Positions 8,598 through 40,850 of a DNA stretch of 64,000 nt are shown here, piece after piece. A model generated the notes under the pieces. That model did no database searches. It had not been told where the DNA came from and saw nothing but the letters and a program-made list of their open reading frames with translations. Within the stretch, counting starts at the first letter, position 1; each line of letters opens with the position of its first letter. The stretch is from an uncultured cyanobacterium (lineage in GTDB: Bacteria > Cyanobacteriota > Cyanobacteriia > Cyanobacteriales > CAWCAG01). The translations under genes were made by a program, and so were the position numbers. The stretch lies in assembly GCA_963793425.1 (NCBI GenBank), contig CAWCAG010000005.1:1728001-1792000 (forward strand), given 5' to 3'.

Positions 8598-8946
8598 TTA
8601 TAAACCATTTTTAGAAGAGTCACGTGCTAATTTAGCCAGTAATTTTCTACGGTTGTTGATAGCTAGTTCAAAGTCAGGCTCAATCTCTAATGCTTTTTCA
8701 TAGGATTTTAATGCTTCATCAAATCGTTCTAGTTTTTCTAGTGTCCAACCTCGACTATTCCAAGCTTCATAAAAATCAGTTTTAATCTCTACAGCTTTGT
8801 TCAAGGAAGCTAACGCCTCTGAGTATTTCCCTGACCTGAATAACGTCAAGCCACGATTATACCAAGCAGCATAAAAATCAGGTTTAATCTCTAAAGCTTT
8901 GTCATAAGAAGCTAATGCCTCATTATACTTCTTAAACCTGAATAAC
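8598..8946 (-). pseudogene. C-terminal TPR-repeat fragment lacking its own 5' end
   Basis: Frame reads LFRFKKYNEALASYDKALEIKPDFYAAWYNRGLTLFRSGKY..., 34-aa TPR units that begin exactly at the kinase break point. Confidence 0.75.
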
Positions 8947-9348
8947 TGGAGGTTGTTGCCCGTGTAAATAAACTAAAATTTCCAGCAATGCCTTAGCCAG
9001 TTGCTGCACTTCTTCCTCACTAAAAGTTCTGCCACTTTTCAAGCATTCTTGTAAAGATTTAGCTGGTATATAACTTTGCACCAAAGCAAAGCCTTTACCT
9101 ATTGATGTATCGATGTCAAAGTAATCTAAGTATTGAGGAATAGCTGGATGGGAAAGGCGTTGTAAAGTTTTGGCTTCTCTTTCAAAAAGCTTCCAATCTT
9201 CCCATTGACAATCTTCGCCAAAAGTTAGTAATTTAATCACTACTAATTCTTTAGTTTCTAAATCATGTGTTAAAAATGTACGCCTTCCAGAATTTTTAGC
9301 TATTTGTTTTTTAATAACATAACGTTCCTTTAGAACCCGCCGCGTCAT
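8932..9348 (-). pseudogene. Truncated Ser/Thr protein kinase (stops just before HRD)
   Basis: Paralogous to the N-terminal part of 9376-10749; ends PPVIQV* where the paralog reads PPVIHRDIKP. Confidence 0.85.
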
Positions 9349-9375
9349 TTTCGATGCTCCTCTTAATCACAATTA

Positions 9376-17473: not shown

Positions 17474-19015
17474 TTAATCACGAATAATGCCAGCAAACTG
17501 TTCCGGTAAACCAACTTCTTTGGGCTTAACAATTTCCCCATTAAAACCCATTGCTTGATTTTCTCCTACTGTTCTTGCTTTAGCTACGGCTGTCCGGAGT
17601 TTGGCATAATCTAATTCATCTTCTATTCCTGCTACCAGATAAATAATTAATTTACTAGCTAAATCCTTACCAGAAATTTGAATTCGCTTCTTTTGAGGAT
17701 CATACAAAACCCCATACCAAGGAGAGGAGGGAAATTCCATACCGCTAAATCTGCCTTGTTTGTCGTATTGACGCAGTTTGCTGAAAATAGTTTTCAGTTT
17801 TAACTTCTTTTTGGTAACTAAAATTCCTAACGCCTGTACTAAAGCAATTTGCCCTACCGGGCGAAAGAGGATGTTCGCTTCTCCTTTTCCCTGTTCATGA
17901 CTAAAACGGCGTAGTTGAGGCGTGTCTGCGCCTTTTTCTAATTTTTTATAGCTGGGTAGGGTGGCGAGGTTATCGAAAAGCTTAGCTAACTCTTGAGATC
18001 CTAACTCTAACTCTTCATCTTCAGGACGTAGGGGAATTAAACCTTTTTCTAGCGGTTGCCAGTGGGGAAATTTTGGTTTTAAGTAAGCCTCCGCCATATC
18101 TTTCAGGGCTTGGAGGGTGGTTAACACTGTGGCTTTGGCTGCAACGGTGGCACTATCCCAATTAACACGGGGATTGCGCCCTTCTTCTTCCCTAAATAGG
18201 GGATGGGTGACAGCAATGTTCCTCGCAACAATGGAAAAGCCATCATCTTCATTTAATAAAGCAAGTTGCCCTTTGCTGAGGTTAATAGACATGAGATTGA
18301 CATGGACGAAAATGGAACGCACTCTTCGTCTTGCTTCTTCCCTCGTTTCCCCTTTAACTACAGCCGGGATAAATTCAATACCAATGTTTTCCTGTGCCAG
18401 GTTTTGTAAGTAAGCAGGATCAAGGTTATATTCTTTACTTAAGTTAGCGATGGTAAGAACTGTTCCTGTAGGTTTTTTGTACTTATTATATTTGGTCAAC
18501 TGTCCGGTTTTCAGCAACTCCATCAACCCTTGAATGCCCATGAGTCTGTGTTGCCCATCAAGGGCAAAGATGGCGATGTTTGCAGAAATATCCAGAAATC
18601 CTAGCTGACCTTTTTCATCTAAAGCTGTGAAGTTAGCGGCTGAATGCAAAGCCCTTTGTTGCTGCCAAGTTTCCGCTTCAGGATCATCTACCCAAGGTGG
18701 GCTGAGAACAACCAGGAGGGCAGGAAATTTGTGATGTTTGCGTACTGCTAAATACTGTGCCAATAAAGCTTGTCGCGACCAATCCAAAGGACGCTGTTGC
18801 AATTGTTCGATGGTGGTAGCATCCCGAATTATATTGTTGGTTTTTGGGTCAAATTTGCTTTGGAATAAGGGCAGTTGTGCAGCGAAGCGAAGGCGACTAG
18901 CCACCCATTCTAAGGTGACTGTACCCAGATAAGCTTCTGTTGTACCCATCTGAGTTTTTTGGACGAAAATTTCTTCTTGTGAGGAGAGGTTGAGGAGTTT
19001 TTCGCGAAAATCCAT
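17474..19015 (-). CDS. DGQHR-domain (DndB-like, ParB-fold) protein
   Basis: QQRPLDWSR, ALDGQHRL and IFVHVN motifs; near dndCD. Confidence 0.85.
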   Translation of the reverse strand: MDFREKLLNLSSQEEIFVQKTQMGTTEAYLGTVTLEWVASRLRFAAQLPLFQSKFDPKTNNIIRDATTIEQLQQRPLDWSRQALLAQYLAVRKHHKFPALLVVLSPPWVDDPEAETWQQQRALHSAANFTALDEKGQLGFLDISANIAIFALDGQHRLMGIQGLMELLKTGQLTKYNKYKKPTGTVLTIANLSKEYNLDPAYLQNLAQENIGIEFIPAVVKGETREEARRRVRSIFVHVNLMSINLSKGQLALLNEDDGFSIVARNIAVTHPLFREEEGRNPRVNWDSATVAAKATVLTTLQALKDMAEAYLKPKFPHWQPLEKGLIPLRPEDEELELGSQELAKLFDNLATLPSYKKLEKGADTPQLRRFSHEQGKGEANILFRPVGQIALVQALGILVTKKKLKLKTIFSKLRQYDKQGRFSGMEFPSSPWYGVLYDPQKKRIQISGKDLASKLIIYLVAGIEDELDYAKLRTAVAKARTVGENQAMGFNGEIVKPKEVGLPEQFAGIIRD

Positions 19016-19116
19016 GAAGACTAGGTTTAAGAGTTGGCTTCTCCATCAAAGGACAAACTATACCCCCAAAAACAAAAACTCAATAAAAGTTTTTAAAAAC
19101 CAATGCCGGGTTTTAA

Positions 19117-21265
19117 AATGATTATTTCATCCTTGACTTCCCAGATGAGCGCCGTTCCCAAAGACCGAATCTGCTAGCGTTGTTTGCTAAGTATAAACCA
19201 GAATTAGTTGTCTCTGAAAAGGAAAAGGAGATTATCCGCAAAACATCGGATCTCAGTTTTGTCGGTAGAGAAGGGGCGATCGCAGATTTAGATAGGTTAG
19301 TTAAACAAGGTGCGAAGGTTATTTTAATTTATGCTGGGGGTGGTGTTGGCAAAACTACTTTAGCCAGAAGATATCTTCAGCAAAGGTTTAGCCATTTTAT
19401 TGAGTTTGCTATTGCCAAAGAGACTCAAAATATCACCTCAGTAGAAAGCTTGTTGGAGGAGAAGTTAAAGCAATTAGGGGAAGAACCGGGTAGAGAGTTT
19501 GGTGTATCTTTAGAGAGGTTGAAACAGAAGCTTAAACGAGAAAAAATTGGCTTATTGATTGACAACCTCGAACCTGCTTTAGATGAAAAAGGCAAGTTTG
19601 TTACACCTCATCGCTGTTATGTAGAGTTGTTGAGGATTCTAACTGCCCCTCAGTTGCAATCTATTACTCTAATTACCAGCCGCGATCGCATAAGAGAATC
19701 TGCCTTAATTCTTTTTGCTATCACTTGTCAGGTTTAGAAGTGCAGCATGGCAAGAGTTTTTTATTCGTCGTCTTAATGTTATCTCTGCTGTTGAAAAAAT
19801 TGATGTAAACACTTTGCAAGCCATACACAAATACTATGGTGGCAACGCTAAAGCTATGGAAATTCTTAGCAGTGCTATTCAACAGGATTATGACAGCGAC
19901 ATTAAGGCTTATTGGCAAGCTAATCAAAAATATTTACCTAGCGAAGGAGAGTTAGAAGATTTAGTTAACTGTCAGTTTCAGCGTTTAGCAAAGCAAAACT
20001 TAGCTGCTTATAATCTCCTGTGTCGTTTGGGATGTTATCGCTATCAAGATGTTGCTACTGTTCCTTTAGAAGGCATTTTTTCTTTGCTTTGGGATGTGCC
20101 AGAAAGGGAACAGATGAAAACAGTTAATATTTTGCGCGATCGCTCTTTGATTGAATTTTCCAAGGGTGAATATTGGCTACATCCAGTTATTCGTGCGGAG
20201 GCAGTTAGTAAATTAAAGAAGAGTGATGACTGGGAGAAAGCTAATCGTCAAGCAGCACAGTTTTGGACAGAAAGTGTTGAAACAATTAAAAATGAAGAAG
20301 ATGCTTTCCAAGCTTTTGAAGCTTATCACCATTATTTAGAAGTTAATGATATTGATGCAGCTAGTTTGGTGATTACAAATAATAGAGAAAATTCTTGGGA
20401 TGAAGACGAAACACTTGGTACATCTTTCTATAGGTTAGGTTTATTGCAAAAAATGATTTTAGCAATCAATTCATTAGTTACTAAAATAAGTTGTCAAGAT
20501 ACTCTAATGAAAATAACTAATATACTAGGAGATATATACTGGCTAATAGGAGATTTAAAGCAAGGTATAAAGTACCATCAATTATCTGGAGAAGTTGCTC
20601 ACAAAGTTAACAAGAAACGATACGAGGCCTTTTCAACATATAATCAAGGTTTATGCTACATAGATTACTTTGAATTAAATATAGCAGTAGATTGTTTTAA
20701 ACAAACCATCTTACTTACTCAAGGTGATAAAGATATTGAAAAATTTTATATGTTTGAGTGTTCGTTTTGCTTAAGTTTTTTGAAATCTAGTTTAGGTCTT
20801 CAAGAAGAAGCAAGAGCGTTACTATCTCAATATTGGCATCTTGTAGGGAAAGTAAAAGCAAGTTCTTGGAATCAAGGTTATAGTTTATTGTTTATAGGTC
20901 AAACCTATAAAAACTTAGGACAGCTCACAGAAGCATTTGAAATATATCATAGAGCGATTAAATATGCAGAAGAAAGTAACTATACTCAAGTCAAAGCTAA
21001 ATCTCTAACAGGACTTGCAGAACTTTATCGCCTTCAAAAAGAATTTACAACAGCCCTCTCTCATCATACAGAATCCATAGAAATGCTCGATAAAATCGGT
21101 GCTAAATGTGACCTTGCAGAAGCTTACTTTCAATTAGCTTTAACCTATCAAGATATGGAAGAAATAGCCAAAAGCAGAGAAAACTTTGAGCAAGCTATTC
21201 AATTATTCAAGAATATACCAGCACCTAAACAAATAGAAAGAGTGCAACAAGCGATAAAACGATAG
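19117..21265 (+). pseudogene. STAND/NB-ARC-like NTPase-TPR gene, disrupted at its 5' end and frameshifted near 19710-19745
   Basis: FVGRE, Walker A GGGVGKTT, LLIDNLE, ITSR, LHPVIR and C-terminal TPRs are split over ORFs 19180-19737 and 19715-21265. Confidence 0.8.
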
Positions 21266-21364
21266 TAGCATAAAAACCAAGTTTTCCTGAAGCTAATTTG
21301 AAATAGTTCAATGTTTGCTACAAATACTTCTGCGTAAGAGATTTTGATTCCATCTTGGGTTTTT

Positions 21365-21431
21365 GTTGGGTTACGGCAACTCAAAGATTATGATAGTTTC
21401 TCTCAATGATTTTAAGCCTAACCCAACCTAC
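21365..21431. repeat. Half of a GTAG-type REP-like element
   Basis: GTTGGGTTA...TAACCCAACCTAC; same family as 36457-36532. Confidence 0.55.
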
Positions 21432-21464
21432 GTTAATAAAGCTTTGGGAAATTGATTTTTAAGA

Positions 21465-21507
21465 GCGCACCTTTTCCACCATATACATAATATCATGTCA
21501 AGGAAGA
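21465..21507 (+). repeat. Dispersed 43-bp repeat, copy 1
   Basis: GCGCACCTTTTCCACCATATACATAATATCATGTCAAGGAAGA, identical to 53945-53987; near-identical inverted copy at about 49757-49800. Confidence 0.85.
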
Positions 21508-21603
21508 AAAATACAACACTACTTTTGAATGTTCCAAATAGAGCTAAAAAAGTTCAATAATCTCTTATGCTCAAATATATGGTAATAGTTTTGAAGGGAG
21601 ACA

Positions 21604-23163
21604 ATGGTTAACTCAACAAAAGCCAACCAAAAGCCGAGTAAGCGAACTGTTCCAGAGTTTGTAGAAGATATCAAGGCGCTAACTACTGAAATACAGGAGT
21701 TATATTCCCTAGACTCAATACCTTGGATTGTCGGTGTATCTGGAGGCAAAGATAGCACTACAGTATTGCAATTAATTTGGAATGCGATCGCCGAGTTGCC
21801 ACCCGAAAAGCGAACTAAGACTATTCATGTTATTACTAACGATACATTAGTAGAAAATCCGGTAGTTTCTGCTTGGGTACGCAAGTCTCTAGAAAAGATG
21901 GAAACGGCGGCCCAACAACAAGGAATGCCTATAGAAACTCATCTAACTTATCCTGAAGTTAGGAATACGTTTTGGGCTTGCTTAATTGGTAAAGGTTATC
22001 CTGCCCCTAGAAATCACTTTCGTTGGTGTACAGAAAGACTCAAAATAAAACCGGCTAATCGTTTTATCCGAGAAGTAGTTAGGGAGCATGGAGAAACGAT
22101 TTTAGCTTTGGGTACACGCAAAGCAGAAAGTGCTAAACGAGCAGCAACAATGGAGAAACACGAAGCAAAAAGATTGCGGGATCATCTTAGCCCTCATGGC
22201 AGTTTACCTAACTCCTTGATTTATTCTCCCATTGAAGATTGGCGTACTGATGAAGTTTGGCTTTATCTTAATCAGTGGCAGAATCCTTGGGGAGTTGATA
22301 ATAAAGACTTGTTCGCTATGTATCGGGGGGCAACAGCAGATAATGAATGTCCTTTAGTAGTAGATACTTCTACCCCTAGTTGTGGTAGTTCCCGTTTTGG
22401 TTGTTGGGTTTGTACATTAGTTAATAAAGATAAATCTATGGAGGCAATGATCCAAAATGATCAGGAAAAAGAATGGATGCAACCTCTTTTGGATATTAGG
22501 AATGAGTTAGATGTAGAAAATGATCGCGATCGCAGAGATTTTCGTCGTATCTTTGGCAAGGTTCAACTCTTTGAAAAAGAGAAAGATGGCAAAACTTCTG
22601 TAGAGAATATCCCCGGTCCTTATACGAGATATTGGCGAGAATATTGGTTAACAAAAGTGCTGGAGGCACAAACTACAGTTCGCAAAACTGCACCAACAGA
22701 CATGGGAGATATAACCTTAATTACTCCGGAAGAGTTGAGTGAAATACGCCGCATTTGGTTAGAAGAGAAGCATGAGTTTGATGATAGCTTGCCTCGTATT
22801 TATGAAGAAGTGACAGGAGAAAAGTTTATTGATACTCGCCCTGGATCTGATAGTAGCTTATTGGGTGCAGAAGAATGGCATACTTTAACAGAAATTTGTG
22901 ATGATGCTATGCACCTAGAGTTGATGGCGAAACTAATAGATACTGAACGACAATATTATACTAAAGCAACGCGAAGTGGTATTTATCAAGCCTTGGAAGA
23001 ATGTTTTGTAACTAGTTCCCGTTCTCAAGATGAAGCAATGAAAAATGCCCACTTCAAAAGGAATGTTAAGAATGCTGCGACAGCAGGAGATGTTAATACT
23101 TTAAAAAGTGAATTAGAATCTCAACAATTAAGTTGGGGAAATGTGAAATTTCCTAACTCTTGA
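21604..23163 (+). CDS. dndC: DNA phosphorothioation sulfurtransferase DndC
   Basis: SGGKDST PP-loop, DTLVENP, GYPAP..FRWCT, ECPLVVD..SCGSSRFGCWVCT. Confidence 0.95.
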   Translation: MVNSTKANQKPSKRTVPEFVEDIKALTTEIQELYSLDSIPWIVGVSGGKDSTTVLQLIWNAIAELPPEKRTKTIHVITNDTLVENPVVSAWVRKSLEKMETAAQQQGMPIETHLTYPEVRNTFWACLIGKGYPAPRNHFRWCTERLKIKPANRFIREVVREHGETILALGTRKAESAKRAATMEKHEAKRLRDHLSPHGSLPNSLIYSPIEDWRTDEVWLYLNQWQNPWGVDNKDLFAMYRGATADNECPLVVDTSTPSCGSSRFGCWVCTLVNKDKSMEAMIQNDQEKEWMQPLLDIRNELDVENDRDRRDFRRIFGKVQLFEKEKDGKTSVENIPGPYTRYWREYWLTKVLEAQTTVRKTAPTDMGDITLITPEELSEIRRIWLEEKHEFDDSLPRIYEEVTGEKFIDTRPGSDSSLLGAEEWHTLTEICDDAMHLELMAKLIDTERQYYTKATRSGIYQALEECFVTSSRSQDEAMKNAHFKRNVKNAATAGDVNTLKSELESQQLSWGNVKFPNS

Positions 23164-23248
23164 AAAAAAATACTTTGAGAGTAATCTTGCTGTTGTTAAC
23201 CTAATAGTGATAGTATTTTGCACTTGTTGGCACTTCCCAGGTAAATGA

Positions 23249-25234
23249 GTGAGATTCTGCGAACTAGTTTTACAAAATTTTGGCCCTTATAAGGGGCGTA
23301 ATGTTCTGAATTTCCAACTTCCGGTTGAGGAAGAGGATACAAGCCCGATTATCTTGTTAGGAGGAATGAATGGTGGCGGCAAAACTACTCTTATGGATGC
23401 CATACGGCTGGCTTTTTATGGTAGTCGCGCCCAATGTTCTACCCGTGGTAACTTAAGCTATGGAGATTTTCTTACCCAATCGGTACACAAGTTAGCTAAG
23501 GCAACAGAAGAGGCTTGTATTGAGTTGGCTTTTGAACATATTTATAATAGCCAACAGGCAGTTTTTCGGATTAGAAGGAGTTGGTTAAGGAATCCGAGAA
23601 ATGGTAAGGATACTTTAAGTATTGCTGTTGATAAATGGTTTGATGATGCTTTAACTAAAACTTGGGATGAGAGAATAGAAGATATTTTCCCTTTAGGTAT
23701 TTCTAATCTTTTCCTTTTTGATGGAGAACAGGTAAAAGAGTTAGCAGAGTTAGAGACTCCGCCAGCTATAGTTATTGAAGCAATTCAATCTCTTTTAGGA
23801 TTAGAATTAGCAGAAAAATTGAGCGTGGATTTAGATATTTTAGTTAATCGTAAAAGGAAAACTTTAGCGACGGCAAAGCAGCGTCTTAATATTGAAGGGA
23901 TTGAGAAAAAAATTAAGCAACAAAAAGATAGTTTGGCAATTGCGAAGCGAGAATTAACTGAATTACAAACTAAATTAGCTGGAGCGCAGGAAAGACAGCA
24001 AATAGCCACAAGTAATTTTATTGTGGAAGGAGGAAAGATTGCCGCAAAGCGTTCTCAATTAGAAGCAGGAATTACCCAATTAACAATAGAAAAAGAGGAA
24101 CAGTATCAAAGTTTAAAAGACGTTGCCGGGGATGTTCTGCCTTTAGGATTAATTATACCTTTGTTAACAGCAACTCACCAACAAGGAGAGGTGGAAGTTA
24201 AAAGAGAACAGGCACAAATTGCTAGGGAGGTATTAATAGAAAGAGATGAACATTTGCTAGAATATATACAATCTATTTCTTTAGCTAAAATTAAATTAAA
24301 GCAAATCGAAGCTTTCTTGGCAGCAGAGAATCAATCCTTAGCCACAGAAATTGAAGCAGAAGAGGACGCTTATTTAAAGTGTGGTAGCGAGGCTATTAAG
24401 CAATTAAATCAACTTCTAGAAACGGAACTGCCCAGGCAAATTACTATCACTCAAGAAAAGTTAGAGAAATTGCAGCAAATAGAAGTAGAAATAAATTCTC
24501 AAGAACGCCAATTAGCAATGGCGGCCCCCCCAGAAGCCTATGAAAAATTAGAAAAAGCCTTAGAGAAAGCACAACAAGAATTAGGTAAAGTACAGGCTGA
24601 ATATGAAGTAAGCAGGAAAAACTGTGGGGAAATAGAACGGAGAATTATTGAAACGAAAAAAGAGTTACAAAAGTATGGGGAAGAACATATTGATCGTAGT
24701 AACGACGAACATATTATTAAATCAGCAGCTAAGGTACAACAAACTCTCCAACTATTTCGAGACAAGCTAACCCTAAAAAAACTCAATCGTTTGGAAGTGG
24801 AAGTAACAGAATGTTTTCGCTATCTCATTCATAAAGAGGATTTTGTTCATCGTATTACTATTGATAGTGAAAGTTTTCGCCTTTCTCTTTACGATTTTCA
24901 AGGAGAATCTTTACCTAAACACCGACTTTCTGCCGGAGAAAAACAACTTTTAGCCATTGCTTTTCTCTGGGGGCTAGCGAGAGTTTCAGGACGCAATTTA
25001 CCCGTAGCCATTGACACTCCTTTAGGAAGATTAGATTCAGAACACCGCCACAATTTAGTTGAGCGATATTTTCCTGCGGCTTCTCACCAAGTTATTCTCC
25101 TTTCTACGGATACAGAAATAGGTAAAACCGAAATAGAACAGTTAAGAAAATCCGAAGCGATCGCACTTGAATATTTATTAAAATACAACCACAAAAATCA
25201 ACAAACTACCATAGAAGAAGGCTATTTCTGGTAA
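23249..25234 (+). CDS. dndD: DNA sulfur modification SMC-like ATPase DndD
   Basis: GMNGGGKTT, FLFDGE, coiled coil, LSAGEKQ, IDTPLGRLD and LLSTDTE; follows dndC. Confidence 0.95.
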   Translation: MRFCELVLQNFGPYKGRNVLNFQLPVEEEDTSPIILLGGMNGGGKTTLMDAIRLAFYGSRAQCSTRGNLSYGDFLTQSVHKLAKATEEACIELAFEHIYNSQQAVFRIRRSWLRNPRNGKDTLSIAVDKWFDDALTKTWDERIEDIFPLGISNLFLFDGEQVKELAELETPPAIVIEAIQSLLGLELAEKLSVDLDILVNRKRKTLATAKQRLNIEGIEKKIKQQKDSLAIAKRELTELQTKLAGAQERQQIATSNFIVEGGKIAAKRSQLEAGITQLTIEKEEQYQSLKDVAGDVLPLGLIIPLLTATHQQGEVEVKREQAQIAREVLIERDEHLLEYIQSISLAKIKLKQIEAFLAAENQSLATEIEAEEDAYLKCGSEAIKQLNQLLETELPRQITITQEKLEKLQQIEVEINSQERQLAMAAPPEAYEKLEKALEKAQQELGKVQAEYEVSRKNCGEIERRIIETKKELQKYGEEHIDRSNDEHIIKSAAKVQQTLQLFRDKLTLKKLNRLEVEVTECFRYLIHKEDFVHRITIDSESFRLSLYDFQGESLPKHRLSAGEKQLLAIAFLWGLARVSGRNLPVAIDTPLGRLDSEHRHNLVERYFPAASHQVILLSTDTEIGKTEIEQLRKSEAIALEYLLKYNHKNQQTTIEEGYFW

Positions 25235-33770: not shown

Positions 33771-33982
33771 AAGTCCGATATGAAATCAATTTTATGTCTC
33801 AAACTCCAAGTCCGATATGAAATTAATTTTGCGTCTCGAACCCCAAGCCCGATATGAAATTAATTTTGCGTCTCGAACCCCAAGCCCGCCATGAAATCAA
33901 TTTCATGTCTCAAACGCCAAGTCGGTTTAAACCGACTTAATATATTAGACAGAGAATTTATTCTCTGGCTCTCTGGCTCTGG
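33771..33982 (+). repeat. Four 37-bp tandem units ending in a three-hairpin REP-like element (left flank of tnpA)
   Basis: Units start at 33771, 33808, 33845 and 33882; palindrome AAGTCGGTTTAAACCGACTT at 33919-33938; CAGAGAATTTATTCTCTG at 33950-33967. Confidence 0.9.
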
Positions 33983-34005: not shown

Positions 34006-34449
34006 ATGGCTTTTTGGCGTTTGTATTATCATTTGGTTTGGGCGACGAAAAACCGACAACCGCTAATTGACAATCAACGCGAAGCCAGACTTTATCCTTA
34101 TATTGTGAGTAAAGCTGATTCTGTGAATTGTATTATTCATGCCCTTAACGGTACACCAGATCATATTCATCTCATTGTTTCTATCCCTCCTAAAATAGCA
34201 GTCGCAGAATTTGTCAAACGCATCAAGGGTAGTAGCTCCCACTACTTAAATCAAACTTTCCCCGCTCCTCCTCAATTTGCTTGGCAAGAGGGTTACGGAG
34301 TATTTTCATTAGGTAGCAAACAATTAGATACTGGAATCGCCTATGTTGGAAATCAAAAAATACATCACCAACAAAGTACAACTATTTCTATGTTAGAAAT
34401 AAGCGACCACAACAATGATCCGCCTCAAAAACATAAAAGATCAGACTAA
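34006..34449 (+). CDS. tnpA: Y1/HUH transposase (IS200/IS605 TnpA-like, possibly REP-associated)
   Basis: YYHLVWATKNR, HUH motif DHIH, IKGSSS, WQEGYGVFS and the catalytic Tyr in AYVGNQ; no tnpB. Confidence 0.92.
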   Translation: MAFWRLYYHLVWATKNRQPLIDNQREARLYPYIVSKADSVNCIIHALNGTPDHIHLIVSIPPKIAVAEFVKRIKGSSSHYLNQTFPAPPQFAWQEGYGVFSLGSKQLDTGIAYVGNQKIHHQQSTTISMLEISDHNNDPPQKHKRSD

Positions 34450-34478: not shown

Positions 34479-34940
34479 CATCAAATCAATGTTGCGTCTC
34501 GAACTCCAAGCTCGACATGAAATCAATTTCACGTCTCAAACTCCAAGTCCGCCATGAAACCAATTTTGTGTTTCAAACTCCAAGTCCGCCATGAAACCAA
34601 TTTTGTGTTTCAAACCCCAAGCCCGCCATGAAACCAATTTTGTGTCTCGAACCTCAAGCCCGCCATGAAACCAATTTTGTGTCTCAAACTCCAAGTCCGA
34701 CATGAAATCAATTTCATGTCTCAAACTCCAAGTCGGTTTAAACCGACTTAATATATTAGACGGAGAATTTATTCTCTGGCTCTCTGGCTCAAACCCCAAG
34801 CCCGACATGAAATCAATTTCATGTCTCAAACTCCAAGTCGGTTTAAACCGACTTAATATATTAGACGGAGAATTTATTCTCCGGCTCTGACGGGCTGACG
34901 GGCTAACGGACTGACTGGCGGACTGGCGGACTGACTGCCT
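34479..34940 (+). repeat. 37-bp tandem array plus two three-hairpin elements and a microsatellite tail (right flank of tnpA)
   Basis: Units at 34508, 34545, 34582, 34619, 34656, 34693 and 34798; palindromes at 34730-34749 and 34835-34854; CTGACGGG/CTGGCGGA tail. Confidence 0.9.
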
Positions 34941-36532: not shown

Positions 36533-36558
36533 CTTTGATACCAAGCCTATTCACTCAG

Positions 36559-36823
36559 CCCGCCAAGCCCGCCAAGCCCGCCAAGCCCGCCAAGCCCGCC
36601 AAGCCCGCCAAGCCCGCCAAGCCCGCCAAGCCCGCCAAGCCCGCCAAGCCCGCCAAGCCCGCCAAGGATTAAAATCCCTGGCTAATAGCTTAAGTCATCT
36701 TGAAGATGACTACCAACTGCTGGGATTGTTCAAAGAAAAATTGTTACCAGATTTCCAAAAACTAATCTTCTAGTCATGTTTAGATGACTTGTGCTGTGAG
36801 CATCAGAATTTATTCACGAGCGG
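36559..36823. repeat. Twelve CCCGCCAAG copies followed by a four-hairpin REPIN-like element
   Basis: 108-bp 9-mer array, then GCCAAGGATTAAAATCCCTGGC, AGTCATCTTGAAGATGACT, a spacer, AGTCATGTTTAGATGACT and a degenerate GAATTTATTC. Confidence 0.8.
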
Positions 36824-36886: not shown

Positions 36887-39800
36887 ATGGAAAGAGAGGA
36901 GTTGCTACGGGTAATTGAAGAGGCGGCTAGGACGGGAGCTAAGGAGTTGGATCTGGCGGGGCATGACCTGACGGAGTTGCCACCGGAGATTGGGCAGTTG
37001 ACCCAGTTGGAAAGTTTGGTACTGGGTAAAGTTGATCATGAAAGGAGAAAAATTCTTGGCAACAAGATTAAGAGCTTCCCTCCTGAAATAGTCCAACTCA
37101 CCAATCTCACCTCCCTTAACCTGAGTCGATAACCAGTTAACGGCACTACCAGCAGAAATAGTCCAACTCACCAACCTCACCGCGCTTTAACCTGAGTGGT
37201 AACCAGCTAACGGCACTACCAGCAGAAATAATCCAACTCACCAACCTCACCGAGCTTTACCTGGGTGGTAACCAGCTAACGGCACTACCAGCAGAAATAA
37301 TCCAACTCACCAACCTCACCTCCCTTTACCTGATTCGTAACCAGCTAACGGCACTACCAGCAGAAATAGTCCAACTCACCAACCTCACCTCCCTTAACCT
37401 GAGTAGTAACCAGCTAACGGCACTACCAGCAGAAATAGTCCAACTCACCAACCTCACCTCCCTTTACCTGATTCGTAACCAGCTAACGGCACTACCAGCA
37501 GAAATAGTCCAACTCACCAACCTCACCTCCCTTCACCTGGGTGGTAACCAGCTAACGGCACTACCAGCAGAAATAGTCCAACTCACCAACCTCACCTCCC
37601 TTGACCTGGGTCGTAACCAGCTAACGGCACTACCAGCAGAAATAGTCCAACTCACCAACCTCACCTCCCTTGACCTGAGGGGTAACCAGCTAACGGCACT
37701 ACCAGCAGAAATAGTCCAACTCACCAACCTCACCTCCCTTGACCTGAGTGGTAACCAGCTAACGGCACTACCAGCAGAAATAGTCCAACTCACCAACCTC
37801 ACTTCCCTTTACCTGAGTCGTAACCAGCTAACGGCACTACCAGCAGAAATAGTCCAACTCACTAACCTCACTTCCCTTAACCTGAGTGATAACCAGCTAT
37901 CGTCACTACCAGCAGAGATAGCCCAACTCACCAACCTCACCTCCCTTGACCTCCGAGGCAATCCCCTCCCCATTTCCCCAGAAATACTTGGCCCTAAAAG
38001 CCTTTTCGAGAAACCTGGGGATATCAACACCATCCTTAACTTCTACTTCGCCACCCAAGACCCCAACGCCACAGAAAAACTCTACGAAGCTAAATTCCTC
38101 ATCGTCGGTGAAGGGGGTGCAGGAAAAACTTCCCTCGCCAAAAAGATCCAAAACCCCAACTACGAACTCGACCCCGAAGAAGAATCCACCCACGGAATAG
38201 AAGTTATTCAATGGCGCTTCCCTTTGGATAATGGGCAAGAATTTCGCGCCAATCTCTGGGACTTCGGAGGACAGGAAATTTACCACCAAACCCACCAATT
38301 CTTCCTCACCGAACGCTCCCTCTACGCCCTGGTGGCCGATACTCGCCAAGAAAACACCGACTTTCCCTACTGGCTTAACTCCATCGAACTGTTCGGAGGA
38401 GATAGCCCCGTGTTGTTAATTAAAAATGAGAAGAATGACCGCCCCTGCAACGTTAATGAAGCAAGACTGAAAAGGGACTTTCATTACATCAAAGAAATCT
38501 TACCCACCAATCTCAAAGATGGTCGGGGCTTAGAAGAAATTAAAAATGCCATCCGCTACCACATTAGCCGCTTAGAATATGTGGGCTATCCCATACTGAA
38601 AAAATGGGTGCGAGTGCGCTATGCCTTAGAAAACGATAGCCGCAACTACATCGACCAACGGGACTACTTCGCCCTCTGTAAAGGAAACGGAGTCAATGAA
38701 CGCTCAGAAATGCTGCGGATTAGCGACTTCCTCCATAAATTAGGTATCTGTCTTCACTTTCAAGAAGACTCCACCCTCAAACATATTGTTATCCTCCGCC
38801 CCGAATGGGCTACTAACGCAGTTTATGCAGTATTAAAAAACCAGAAAGTTGCGGCGGCTAAAGGTTTGTTTACTCGCTCTGACGTCAAGGAATATTTGGC
38901 AGGAAAGGCAATATGCCTACATGGAAGATGAGCTACTGCGGCTAATGAAGAATTTCAAACTCTGCTACCCCATTCCCGGTTTAAAAGAGCATTACATTGC
39001 TCCTCAATTGCTAGAGTTTGAGCCACCGGATTATGAGTTTGCAGAGAATGATAATTTAATGCTGCGCTACGAATATGAATTTATGCCCAAGGGAATTATT
39101 ACCCAGCTTATTGTGCGGCTTTATCGTTGGATTGAACAACAGCAACTGGTCTGGCGTAGTGGTGTGGTTTTTAATAATGGTCGCGCCCGTGCTGAAGTTA
39201 TCGAAACCTATCGTCCCTATAAAGGAGAAATCTGTGTTCAGGTTTCCGGCATCCACAGTAAAGAGCTTCTCAGCGTGGTTACTAATGAGATTGACCAAAT
39301 TAATAGTTCTTTTGAAAGAATAGATGTTAAGAAAAAGATTCCCTGCAACTGTAAAGAATGTCAAAATGATCCTGAACCCTATTATTTTGATTTGGAAACT
39401 CTCTATCGCGCCCTTAATAAAAGGCGTTATGAAATTGATTGCCACAAAAGTTTTGAAGATGTCAATGTTCGTAATTTGACGGCTGTGGTAGAAAACAATT
39501 TCTTTTCAGGGGAAGATAAAAAACGAATTGAGCAAGAAGAGTTTGAACGCTTAAAAGAGCGGCATACTGAATATTATCAACCTAATTCTAAGACCATGAG
39601 TTCTAAATTCCACATCAGCGCCGAGAATGTGCAAATTGTTGAAAGTGTTGCTCAAGGGGATGCGGTTATTCACAAATACGCTGACAACCCCGAAGTAAAG
39701 ACAGCCCTCGATGAGTTGTTAATCTTCCTCAAAGATTTACAAGGGAAGCACCCCGACGCTAAACCAGAAGAAGCAGGAGAGATTCTCAAGGCTGAAATTG

Positions 39801-40003
39801 TGGAGATGAAGCAAACTCAACCCCAAGGTTGGCAGAAGTTTGTACAACAGCTTCGCAGCTTGCCCCAGGATATAAGAAGTCCTGAACGTATAATGCAAGC
39901 TAGCAAGTCTGCCCTAGTGCAAGTGACTACAGATTTAACGGATAATGTTTTTCTCAATGCTGGGGTAGCTTTTCTTGATGGTTTAAGTGGGGAACCAGAA
40001 TAA
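36887..40003 (+). CDS. LRR-Roc-COR (Roco) GTPase of about 1040 aa; three +1 frameshifts as assembled (about 37128, 37188 and 38890)
   Basis: N-cap ELDLAGHDLTELPPEIGQL, 23-aa LRRs, VGEGGAGKTS, STHGI, WDFGGQE and a COR region (LRPEW, FMPKGI, WRSGVV, CNCKEC). Confidence 0.88.
37081..37965 (+). repeat. 69-bp intragenic tandem repeat encoding 13 LRR motifs
   Basis: AACCAGCTAACGGCACTACCAGCAGAAATAGTCCAACTCACCAACCTCACCTCCCTT-NAC-CTG-NNN-NNN repeated. Confidence 0.95.
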
Positions 40004-40014
40004 TGAAATCACCA

Positions 40015-40232
40015 ACCAATCTCATCTCTCAAACCCCAAGTCCGACACGAAATCAATTTCATCTCTCAAACCCCAAGTCGGTTTAAACCGACTTAACATA
40101 TTAGACAGAGAATTTATTCTCTGGCTGGCTCTGGCTGGCTCTGGCTGGCTCTGGCTGGCTCTGGCGGACTGGCGGACTGCTGGCTGGCTCTGGCCTGGCT
40201 GACTGGCGGACTGGCGGACTGGCGGACTGGCT
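40015..40232 (+). repeat. Fourth copy of the tnpA-flanking three-hairpin element, with a 37-bp unit and CTGGCTGGCT/CTGGCGGA tail
   Basis: AAGTCGGTTTAAACCGACTT at 40075-40094 and CAGAGAATTTATTCTCTG at 40106-40123. Confidence 0.9.
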
Positions 40233-40250: not shown

Positions 40251-40850
40251 ATGATTGCCCTCAAAGATAATCAATCCCTACCCCCAGAAAAATACCTCCA
40301 ACTCGAAGCGGAAAGCAAAGTCAAACACGAATACATTGATGGTGAAGTTTATGCCATGGCAGGAACTACCGATACCCATAATACCATTGCTGGAAACTTC
40401 TTTATCCTCATTAGTAACCACCTAAGAGGAACAAACTGTCGCGTTTACTTCGCCGATATTAAAGTTCGTCTCGAACAAGTAAACTGCTTTTACTATCCTG
40501 ATCTCCTTGTTACCTGCAAACCCCAAGACAGAGAAACGTCAATCTATAAACGCTTTCCTAAACTAATTGTTGAGGTGCTTTCTGATAGTACAGAATCTTT
40601 TGACAGAGGTGATAAGTTTAACCACTACCAAACCTTAGAAAGCTTAGAAGAATATGTTTTAGTTAATACTAAACAACAAAGAGTAGAAAGTTTTCAACGT
40701 CAAAAACAAAACTCCTGGCTATTTCAAACCTATACACCTACTCAAACATCTTTGACTCTACAAAGTCTGAACTTGACTATATCTTTGAGCGAACTATACG
40801 AAAGTGTGAACCTCGAAACAACCTCCAATCAATCACTCATTACTGAGTAA
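40251..40850 (+). CDS. Uma2-family (DUF820) PD-(D/E)XK endonuclease-like protein
   Basis: HEYIDGEVYAMAG, YYPDLLV, IVEVLSDST..DRGDK and EYVLV motifs; AGGAG ribosome-binding site. Confidence 0.9.
   Translation: MIALKDNQSLPPEKYLQLEAESKVKHEYIDGEVYAMAGTTDTHNTIAGNFFILISNHLRGTNCRVYFADIKVRLEQVNCFYYPDLLVTCKPQDRETSIYKRFPKLIVEVLSDSTESFDRGDKFNHYQTLESLEEYVLVNTKQQRVESFQRQKQNSWLFQTYTPTQTSLTLQSLNLTISLSELYESVNLETTSNQSLITE

Follow-up and report, generated by a model that had tools for sequence, protein, structure and literature searches.

A homogenised leucine-rich repeat array with three hypervariable codons in a frame-interrupted cyanobacterial Roco gene

Tandem repeats that are almost identical except at a few codons raise the question of whether their differences are a by-product of recent copying or the mark of selection on a binding surface, and the question is sharper still when the reading frame that carries them is broken. 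Such an array of leucine-rich repeats (LRRs) lies in a Roco (LRR-Roc-COR) gene of an uncultured cyanobacterium (assembly GCA_963793425.1, contig CAWCAG010000005.1), within a stretch of 64,000 nucleotides (nt) that was analysed as a whole and is referred to below as the window; coordinates are those of the window. Our analysis leads us to regard the array as probably the ligand-sensing LRR solenoid of a cytoplasmic Roco GTPase, evolving as a "high internal conservation" (HIC) repeat domain.

The repeat units differ at three codons

Tandem Repeats Finder placed a repeat with a period of 69 nt at 37085-37952 (12.6 copies, 93% matches). The first three units start at 37085, 37155 and 37225, and the others follow at 69-nt intervals, the last at 37915. 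Length is 70 nt in units 1 and 2 and 69 nt in units 3-12; the array closes with a degenerate C-terminal cap, unit 13 (37915-37983). One unit encodes EIVQLTN-LTSL-x5-L-x7-x8-NQLTALPA, in which the variable codons are x5, x7 and x8 of the LxxLxLxxN motif. A sequence-only reading of this DNA had listed the codons at these sites, and the unit table reproduced the lists exactly: AAC, TAC, CAC and GAC at x5; AGT, GGT, ATT and AGG at x7; GGT, CGT, AGT and GAT at x8. These 12 codon alleles specify 12 different residue states, with no synonymous alleles among them, and the resulting triplet alphabet is D/N/Y/H - S/G/I/R - G/R/S/D. The 13 triplets of that reading were also recovered, apart from unit 2, whose x5 is the four-base TAAC and reads Y or N rather than plainly N.

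The same reading had described near-identical 69-bp units that vary at three codons, and this held most clearly in units 5-10, where 41 of 135 comparisons differed in the 9 hypervariable nt and 0 of 900 in the framework; all 5 variable columns of these units fall inside the 9 hypervariable nt (chance 1.1e-5). Across units 1-12, pairwise differences per site were 0.275 in the 9 hypervariable nt vs 0.037 in the other 60 nt, and 6 of the 16 variable columns were inside the hypervariable set (hypergeometric p = 0.0036). Synonymous variable columns numbered four (18, 21, 27 and 52) and were confined to the edge units. A per-codon comparison of nonsynonymous and synonymous differences (pN and pS, the proportions of changed sites), which had been suggested as a check, gave a pN/pS above 1 at the three codons: pN was 0.364 and pS 0.018 at x5/x7/x8 (pN/pS ~20), against 0.030 and 0.050 at the other twenty codons (0.61), these figures being descriptive, as they come from a Nei-Gojobori-type count over unit pairs that are not independent. 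Amino-acid variability at x3 and x19 was lower than at x5, x7 and x8. A small hairpin, TTACC-TGAGT-GGTAA, was seen by eye to span the three variable codons, and its variants showed no compensatory pattern.

The variable positions are predicted to line the concave face

An AlphaFold2 model of units 2-13 was confident, with a predicted local distance difference test score (pLDDT) of 91.5 and a predicted template modelling score (pTM) of 0.88. The register was set by us, with residue 1 of the model being L6 of unit 2. In this model eleven strands lie on x3-L4-x5 or x3-L4-x5-L6-x7, and short helices lie on x16-x20. Because L4 and L6 form the core, as the LRR geometry is stated in the portion of PMC3341825 drawn on here, x3, x5 and x7 are predicted to face out of the concave sheet, and x8 would begin the next loop. 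The placement of x5, x7 and x8 follows the strand register rather than computed solvent exposure. The model thus favours the earlier proposal that the variable sites lie on the concave beta face, with x5 and x7 alternating with the core leucines and x8 coming right after them.

Both marks of LRR membership were present, namely the tandem LxxLxLxxNxL motif and a solenoid with a strand on that motif. The nearest solved folds in a Foldseek search were Leptospira LRR proteins (E 1.2e-25), and the LRR domain of the Chlorobium tepidum Roco protein (5il7) was matched at E 1.5e-15 with a TM score of 0.73.

The array belongs to a Roco GTPase gene

The features of the gene, in window coordinates, are as follows.

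36887-40003, plus strand: Roco (LRR-Roc-COR) gene, with ATG at 36887 and stop codon at 40001-40003
36887..37132, plus strand: N-terminal piece in frame 1, comprising the ATG, an N-terminal cap, the first divergent LRRs and unit 1 (LRR_4, 6.1e-08)
37085..37983, plus strand: LRR array of 13 tandem units, 69 nt and 23 amino acids each (Tandem Repeats Finder, unit table, model fold)
37127..37130, plus strand: first +1 break, CGAT replacing the x8 codon of unit 1 (sequence reading)
37188..37191, plus strand: second +1 break, TAAC replacing the x5 codon of unit 2 (sequence reading)
38092..38430, plus strand: Roc GTPase domain, frame 3 (Pfam Roc, 5.6e-25)
38599..39013, plus strand: COR-A domain, in frame 3 up to 38901 and in frame 1 from 38912 onwards (Pfam, 1.1e-30 and 7.4e-06)
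38890..38893, plus strand: third +1 break, GAAT in COR-A (comparison with close alleles)
39053..39478, plus strand: COR-B domain (Pfam, 1.5e-40)
39599..40003, plus strand: C-terminal helical module of ~130 amino acids, without a named family, followed by the stop codon

Pfam families matched in the order Roc (5.6e-25), COR-A (1.1e-30) and COR-B (1.5e-40), alongside LRR_8 (4.5e-64). Roco GTPases are recognised by a G1 P-loop of the form GxxxxGK[ST] and a G3 motif DxxG; the Roc domain here carries the P-loop GEGGAGKT at 38107-38130 and the switch II sequence DFGGQ at 38260-38274. The final 35 model positions of COR-A match in the next frame piece, and the domain is intact in P0001 and P0121, two close alleles considered below. 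P0121, whose sequence is uninterrupted, matches a solved structure of the Chlorobium tepidum Roco protein (6hlu_A, 2.8e-70) and, at ~2e-35, human LRRK2. From these domains and matches, therefore, the gene is predicted to encode an LRR-Roc-COR GTPase with ~175 further residues at its C-terminal end, in agreement with the Roco assignment first made by eye. A search of the Roco gene with Pfam revealed no NACHT or NB-ARC ATPase switch, only Roc or Ras-type GTPase families; the gene is NLR-like in logic (NLR, nucleotide-binding and leucine-rich repeat receptor) and is not a member of the NLR/STAND group (STAND, signal transduction ATPases with numerous domains). The N-terminus is conserved in four relatives (P0008, P0010, P0018 and P0028).

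The framework has been homogenised while the three codons vary

A genome of the same genus (G001) holds an orthologue that is 82% identical in Roc-COR. The array there comprises 8-9 units, whose framework is NQLGELPAEI[V/G]QLTNLTSL, the window counterpart being NQLTALPAEIVQLTNLTSL, and three columns are fixed differently across all units of the two arrays. Nucleotide identity within arrays was 0.93 in the window (10 units) and 0.905 in G001, and 0.842 between the arrays, a value equal to the 84.3% identity of the flanking Roc-COR DNA. From the distinctly fixed framework columns and the excess of within-array over between-array identity, therefore, we infer concerted evolution: both indicate that the units were homogenised after the split of the two species. 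Variation in G001 was again at x5, x7 and x8, with a pN/pS of 2.0 there vs 0.22 at the other 20 codons.

Unit number also differs among orthologues, from 8-9 in G001 to 13 in the window and 21 or more in P0008. Closer alleles are available as two proteins from metagenome-assembled genomes (MAGs) labelled "Spirulinaceae cyanobacterium", P0001 and P0121, which are ~95% identical to the window in Roc-COR-A. Over the last 365 amino acids P0121 and the window are identical; they differ at x3 and x5 of the final units, by 9 changes within the LRR-Roc linker and by three residues past the P-loop. Between P0001 and P0121, 4 of the 12 differences are on x5, x7 or x8, inside the first 28 amino acids. 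A comparison of orthologues and paralogues had been proposed for this locus, and in it close alleles and orthologues do vary at x5/x7/x8 and in unit number.

Arrays of this design are the norm in the family

A Roc-COR-A search returned 5096 proteins at E <=1e-40 among 8000 scored, and the 120 best were surveyed. At least five contiguous 23-residue units were present in 75 of these, and 59 of the 75 arrays had a mean unit amino-acid identity of at least 0.70. In these 59 arrays the mean within-array entropy was highest at x8 (1.63 bits), x7 (1.59) and x5 (1.48), followed by x19 (1.14), x3 (1.08) and x16 (0.89); the leucines, N9 and P15 were at 0.16 or less, and structural positions overall were at or below 0.3 bits. 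The residues at x5 were D (209), Y (145), N (120) and H (61) in 535 of 575 cases, which is the NAY codon set.

At the DNA level, 77 loci were compared, comprising the window, G001 and 75 GenBank loci. At least five contiguous units occurred in 25 of them, and 15 of these, the window and G001 included, had a nucleotide identity of at least 0.80. In the 13 of these besides the window and G001, pN/pS was again higher at the three codons than elsewhere (1.27 vs 0.42). One such locus, on a deltaproteobacterial MAG contig (L100), contains a homogenised LRR array in a Roco locus, with 7 units at 0.86 nucleotide identity; the homogenised-array design is therefore not confined to cyanobacteria. The design is the norm of this Roco family and is not special to the present locus.

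Two of the features by which HIC repeats are recognised can be stated for the window array. Units that are at least ~70% identical are expected, and the nucleotide identity here is 0.93; the few hypervariable, amino-acid-changing positions are found at the binding face as modelled (pN/pS 20 vs 0.61). A third feature, polymorphism of repeat number and content between alleles, may also apply, given the unit numbers of the orthologues and the differing last units of the same-species MAG alleles, whose sequences are cut inside the array.

Frame breaks and the state of the gene

Several points weigh against reading the array as the binding domain of a working receptor under diversifying selection. 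With three +1 breaks, no full-length protein would be made from the gene as assembled. The paralogue elsewhere in this genome (G000:C7:282156-284000, L018), which is 88% identical in Roc-COR, is a remnant with ~1.5 LRR units left, a TAG within the DFGG-Q motif of its Roc domain and most of its C-terminal module gone. The G001 orthologue and an allele from the European Nucleotide Archive (ENA), P0124, are each frameshifted in Roc. Taken with the breaks of the gene itself, these observations mean that the lineage may be losing the gene. As for selection, the pN/pS at the three codons was only 1.27 (0.42 elsewhere) in the 13 homogenised DNA arrays besides the window and G001, and the D/Y/N/H alphabet of x5 could in part reflect structural constraint rather than ligand-driven selection. 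The differences between P0001 and P0121 have to be read with the fact that both proteins begin at a contig end within the array, where the first units are possibly short-read assembly chimeras. With regard to function, PADLOC returned only a 43-residue P-loop match to PDC-S73 at E 0.003, from a 2023 library that may lack Roco models, and when the C-terminal module was compared by fold with 48,161 chains, the highest Z was 5.4, a score that says little for a helical bundle.

The reading frame is interrupted three times, at 37127-37130, 37188-37191 and 38890-38893, each time by one extra base. The first extra base creates the TAA at 37130-37132 that closes the N-terminal piece. In the two 70-nt units the surplus base lies inside a hypervariable codon: CGAT combines in series CGT and GAT, two codons in use at x8 of other units, and TAAC likewise combines TAC and AAC, in use at x5 of other units. 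At the COR-A codon interrupted by GAAT, close alleles have AAT (N; P0001, P0121 and P0122) or GAT (D; P0124), and G001 and the C7 paralogue have GAA (E). Either the consensus was built from mixed alleles and the breaks are artefacts, or the gene has truly been inactivated.

That two versions of the gene were present in the sequenced DNA, with both alleles kept serially at three sites and the true alleles intact, is a strong contender, although we stop short of calling it probable. The two versions could stem from two genotypes in the culture, from unequal chromosome copies or from a collapsed duplicate, and long-read polishing of a roughly even mix of two alleles could turn substitutions into insertions. 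All three breaks in the gene are +1 and can be written as CGT + GAT, TAC + AAC and GAT or GAA + AAT, with the alternative alleles present in other units or in close relatives. Set against this, the assembly contains no second copy of the array, and the other broken gene of the window that was examined, a STAND gene with tetratricopeptide repeats (TPR) at 19.1-21.3 kb, has deletions instead of merges. Two broader forms of the explanation were rejected: the two 1-nt deletions in the STAND-TPR gene exclude that all breaks in the window are +1, and overlapping pairs of open reading frames (ORFs) across the genome (129 for +1 vs 149 for +2, a crude test) give no general +1 excess of the kind that systematic insertion errors would leave.

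The gene may instead be a decaying pseudogene in this strain, its array pattern being a relic of selection in the past that serves no function now; we regard this as quite possible, if on the doubtful side. Three breaks fall within 3.1 kb, whereas long housekeeping genes of the window are intact (PolA, 964 amino acids; an oxoprolinase, 1201; a CheA-like protein, 1799). Decay would also fit the clearly degraded Roco copy on C7, the frameshifts in the G001 orthologue and P0124, the two 1-nt deletions of the STAND-TPR gene relative to the congener and the missing +1 excess in the ORF pairs. It fits poorly with the position of the breaks, every one of which is in a codon that varies among units or close alleles and is an exact serial merge of two known alleles; three such merges from random insertions would have a rough joint chance of ~1e-3 (0.13 x 0.13 x 0.07). 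The gene also carries no further stops, deletions or substitutions, and its last 365 amino acids are identical to those of the intact MAG allele P0121.

A further, improbable reading is that the merged codons record real allelic heterogeneity, with at least two receptor versions coexisting in different cells or on polyploid chromosome copies. If so, the differences between the versions would lie in binding-face codons of units 1 and 2 and in a single codon of COR-A, and a bacterial LRR immune-like receptor would have been caught diversifying, perhaps aided by a mutational bias toward these codons.

The C-terminal module and the immune-type context

Among the 120 best relatives, many carry TIR (PF13676, PF01582) or CHAT (PF12770) domains, as judged by eye from the table rather than by a count. 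The possible immune role suggested earlier would fit these ends and the published prediction for such proteins discussed below; it was not helped by PADLOC, in which no usable match was obtained.

In this gene the C-terminal end is a different module, whose model is a helical bundle with a pLDDT of 73.9. Neither Pfam (at E up to 1, and also over all 38 alignment members) nor NCBIfam gave it a name. A HMMER profile of the module matched 85 cluster representatives at E <=1e-3, and in the rows checked the match stops at, or a few residues before, the protein C-terminus. Among 37 carriers scanned, HEAT was found in 21, NACHT in 8 and COR in 2, no family was found in 9, and NB-ARC with TPR, trypsin, FGE-sulfatase, SPFH and EAD8 occurred once each. 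Trypsin-HEAT proteins are among those ending in the module (window 39599-39997). Its Atlas neighbours were unnamed cyanobacterial clusters, together with a TCAD2 cluster at 0.90, a lead without Pfam support. A stand-alone copy is encoded by a 142-amino-acid ORF in this genome (G000:C5:1479501-1479911, L026/L028). Given its sharing with NLR-like proteins and this stand-alone copy, a role of the module as a homotypic adaptor or effector is plausible.

The variable LRR face could serve self or kin recognition between filaments, or track fast-evolving endogenous signalling partners, instead of phage defence. The closest evolutionary analogue, the fungal HIC NLR repeats, acts in allorecognition in the portion of PMC13449251 drawn on here; no known defence effector is part of the present gene, and its gene neighbourhood is not conserved, the congener having a different gene upstream. 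We nevertheless consider this unlikely, in view of the TIR or CHAT ends of relatives, which are domains typical of abortive-infection effectors, and of the counter-invader role predicted for the family in the part of PMC8195603 that treats it.

Mode of diversification

As an HIC repeat domain, the array could have diversified as follows. Unequal recombination or gene conversion among units would homogenise the framework and alter the number and order of units, and diversifying selection would retain point-mutation variants at the three ligand-facing codons, so that the mosaic of triplets differs per allele. A ligand, probably a foreign protein such as a phage protein, would then bind the solenoid and be signalled through Roc-COR to the C-terminal module, with the output being the unnamed helical domain in this gene and putatively TIR or CHAT in relatives. 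Nothing beyond ordinary point mutation, recombination or conversion within the gene, and selection is needed for this.

A neutral and very recent tandem amplification, in which the units are alike from recent copying and their differences are random, would account for the high unit identity and for the identical adjacent units of some relatives, such as P0008. It is very improbable, since the differences are non-random (p = 1.1e-5 in units 5-10), all non-synonymous and spread over four alleles per site, since variation falls on these three positions in 59 independent arrays, and since the congener has fixed its framework differently while its variable sites are the same.

Dedicated machinery, either a reverse transcriptase with a template repeat as in diversity-generating retroelements (DGRs) or donor-cassette copying as in the variable lymphocyte receptors (VLRs), is hardly credible: the confinement of variation to few codons, an x5 set (NAC) that cannot reach a stop via its first base and 7 PF00078 reverse transcriptase matches in the genome would suit it, but all 7 lie outside the window (the closest at a distance of ~570 kb on the same contig), the variable bases include others than adenine (G/C/A at base 1 of x8, G/T at base 2 of x7), and the DGR targets known so far consist of single variable regions rather than tandem units. 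A search of the nine contigs for a second copy of the unit, as a template, donor or paralogous array, revealed only a 60-nt stretch at 88% identity in the C7 remnant. DGR- or cassette-type diversification was accordingly rejected, there being no unit copy, no reverse transcriptase in the window and changes at bases other than adenine. The nine contigs likewise hold no second array that would point to an assembly collapse of paralogous arrays, although a near-identical collapsed copy would need read depth to show.

Neighbourhood of the gene

At 36557-36666, ~220 nt upstream of the Roco start codon, are 12.2 perfect tandem copies of a 9-nt unit (AGCCCGCCA), and the congener orthologue has a different 7-nt array of 13 copies in the same relative place (L002 559-649); the upstream array could be a length-variable promoter element. 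The Roco gene is flanked on both sides by copies of a repeat of ~120-150 nt (82-92% identical; 33871-33978, 34669-34933 and 40014-40179), which also surround an IS200-like Y1 transposase gene (34006-34449). Short tandem repeats of 8-10 nt occur at 40119-40231, and the downstream gene (40251-40850), for an Uma2-family endonuclease, matches the PADLOC candidate family PDC-S03 (3.7e-33).

Farther upstream, a Dnd-like gene set at 17477-25231 comprises DndB (17477-19045), a PAPS-reductase-type gene (21595-23160) and an AAA_23/SMC-type gene (23249-25231). The STAND ATPase-TPR gene with two 1-nt deletions relative to the congener lies within this set (19117-21262) and is intact in two relatives (805 and 837 amino acids). 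On the minus strand, 8601-9366 holds part of a protein kinase (Pkinase positions 15-117 of 263), truncated and followed by TPR repeats in another frame, which is probably another broken multidomain signalling gene.

Relation to known systems

Five published or solved systems resemble this gene, and the comparisons with published texts refer to the portions of those texts drawn on here. Bacterial LRR-AP-GTPase-COR proteins were predicted to be conflict systems with a counter-invader role (Kaur, Iyer, Burroughs and Aravind 2021, eLife; PMC8195603), in which the LRRs are termed "rapidly evolving" and at least 24 alternative C-terminal effector domains occur, TIR and caspase included. The present gene is built like them, with LRRs at the N-terminus, then Roc and COR, and at the C-terminus a module that varies within the family; here this module was matched to none of the effectors named there, and section 15 of that paper contains no account of units that are almost identical and vary at x5/x7/x8 alone.

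The fungal HIC repeats of NLRs (HNWD WD40, ANK and TPR; Dyrka 2014, PMC4986451; Ament-Velasquez 2026, PMC13449251) are, like our array, made of near-identical repeats, a few positions of which are hypervariable and subject to diversifying selection. The same two sources report that these repeats are polymorphic in number, that shuffling has been proposed for them and that pseudogenes are frequent, and PMC13449251 also places HIC repeats, LRRs included, in ATPase-bearing bacterial proteins. Unlike the fungal NLRs as presented there, the present case has LRRs, a Roc GTPase rather than a NACHT/NB-ARC ATPase and a bacterial host without repeat-induced point mutation (RIP).

The ROCO proteins of the brown alga Ectocarpus (Zambounis 2012, PMC3341825) share the LRR-Roc-COR architecture, and their shuffled LRR units and positively selected concave-face sites led to their proposal as immune receptors. 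In the account given there each LRR is an exon and exons are shuffled among many loci, whereas here one intron-less tandem array is found at one locus, plus a remnant. Lamprey VLRs, as cited in the same paper, carry variable residues on the LRR concave face over a constant scaffold; they are assembled somatically from flanking cassettes, and no cassettes are present at this locus. The likeness to the Chlorobium tepidum Roco protein (PDB 6hlu, 8r4b, 3dpu and 5il7) is in Roc-COR sequence and LRR fold.

Leaving aside the supplements of PMC8195603 and PMC13449251, we found no published description of bacterial Roco proteins whose homogenised LRR arrays vary at x5/x7/x8 alone, nor a statement that such arrays are the norm among these proteins. 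Given the precedent of the PMC8195603 prediction and of the HIC repeats, the gene therefore belongs to an already known kind. The HIC repeats, the algal ROCO case and the prediction for bacterial LRR-Roc-COR proteins have already been published, and this gene adds an ordinary, possibly inactive member.

Implications

As the gene is ordinary and possibly inactive, the value of this window alone is modest; its most useful leads are the merged-allele frame breaks and the unnamed C-terminal module. The module, being common to NACHT-HEAT proteins, is a lead to the output side of such sensors. Bacterial Roco proteins are prokaryotic relatives of human LRRK2, and we know of no ligand or function for any of them, that of C. 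tepidum included. For this family, the results show that Roco LRR domains often follow the design of fungal allorecognition NLRs and algal ROCO receptors, with a homogenised scaffold and three hypervariable contact positions. This design points to the concave face as the surface that would determine specificity, and supplies a rule on which residues to swap, namely x5, x7 and x8.

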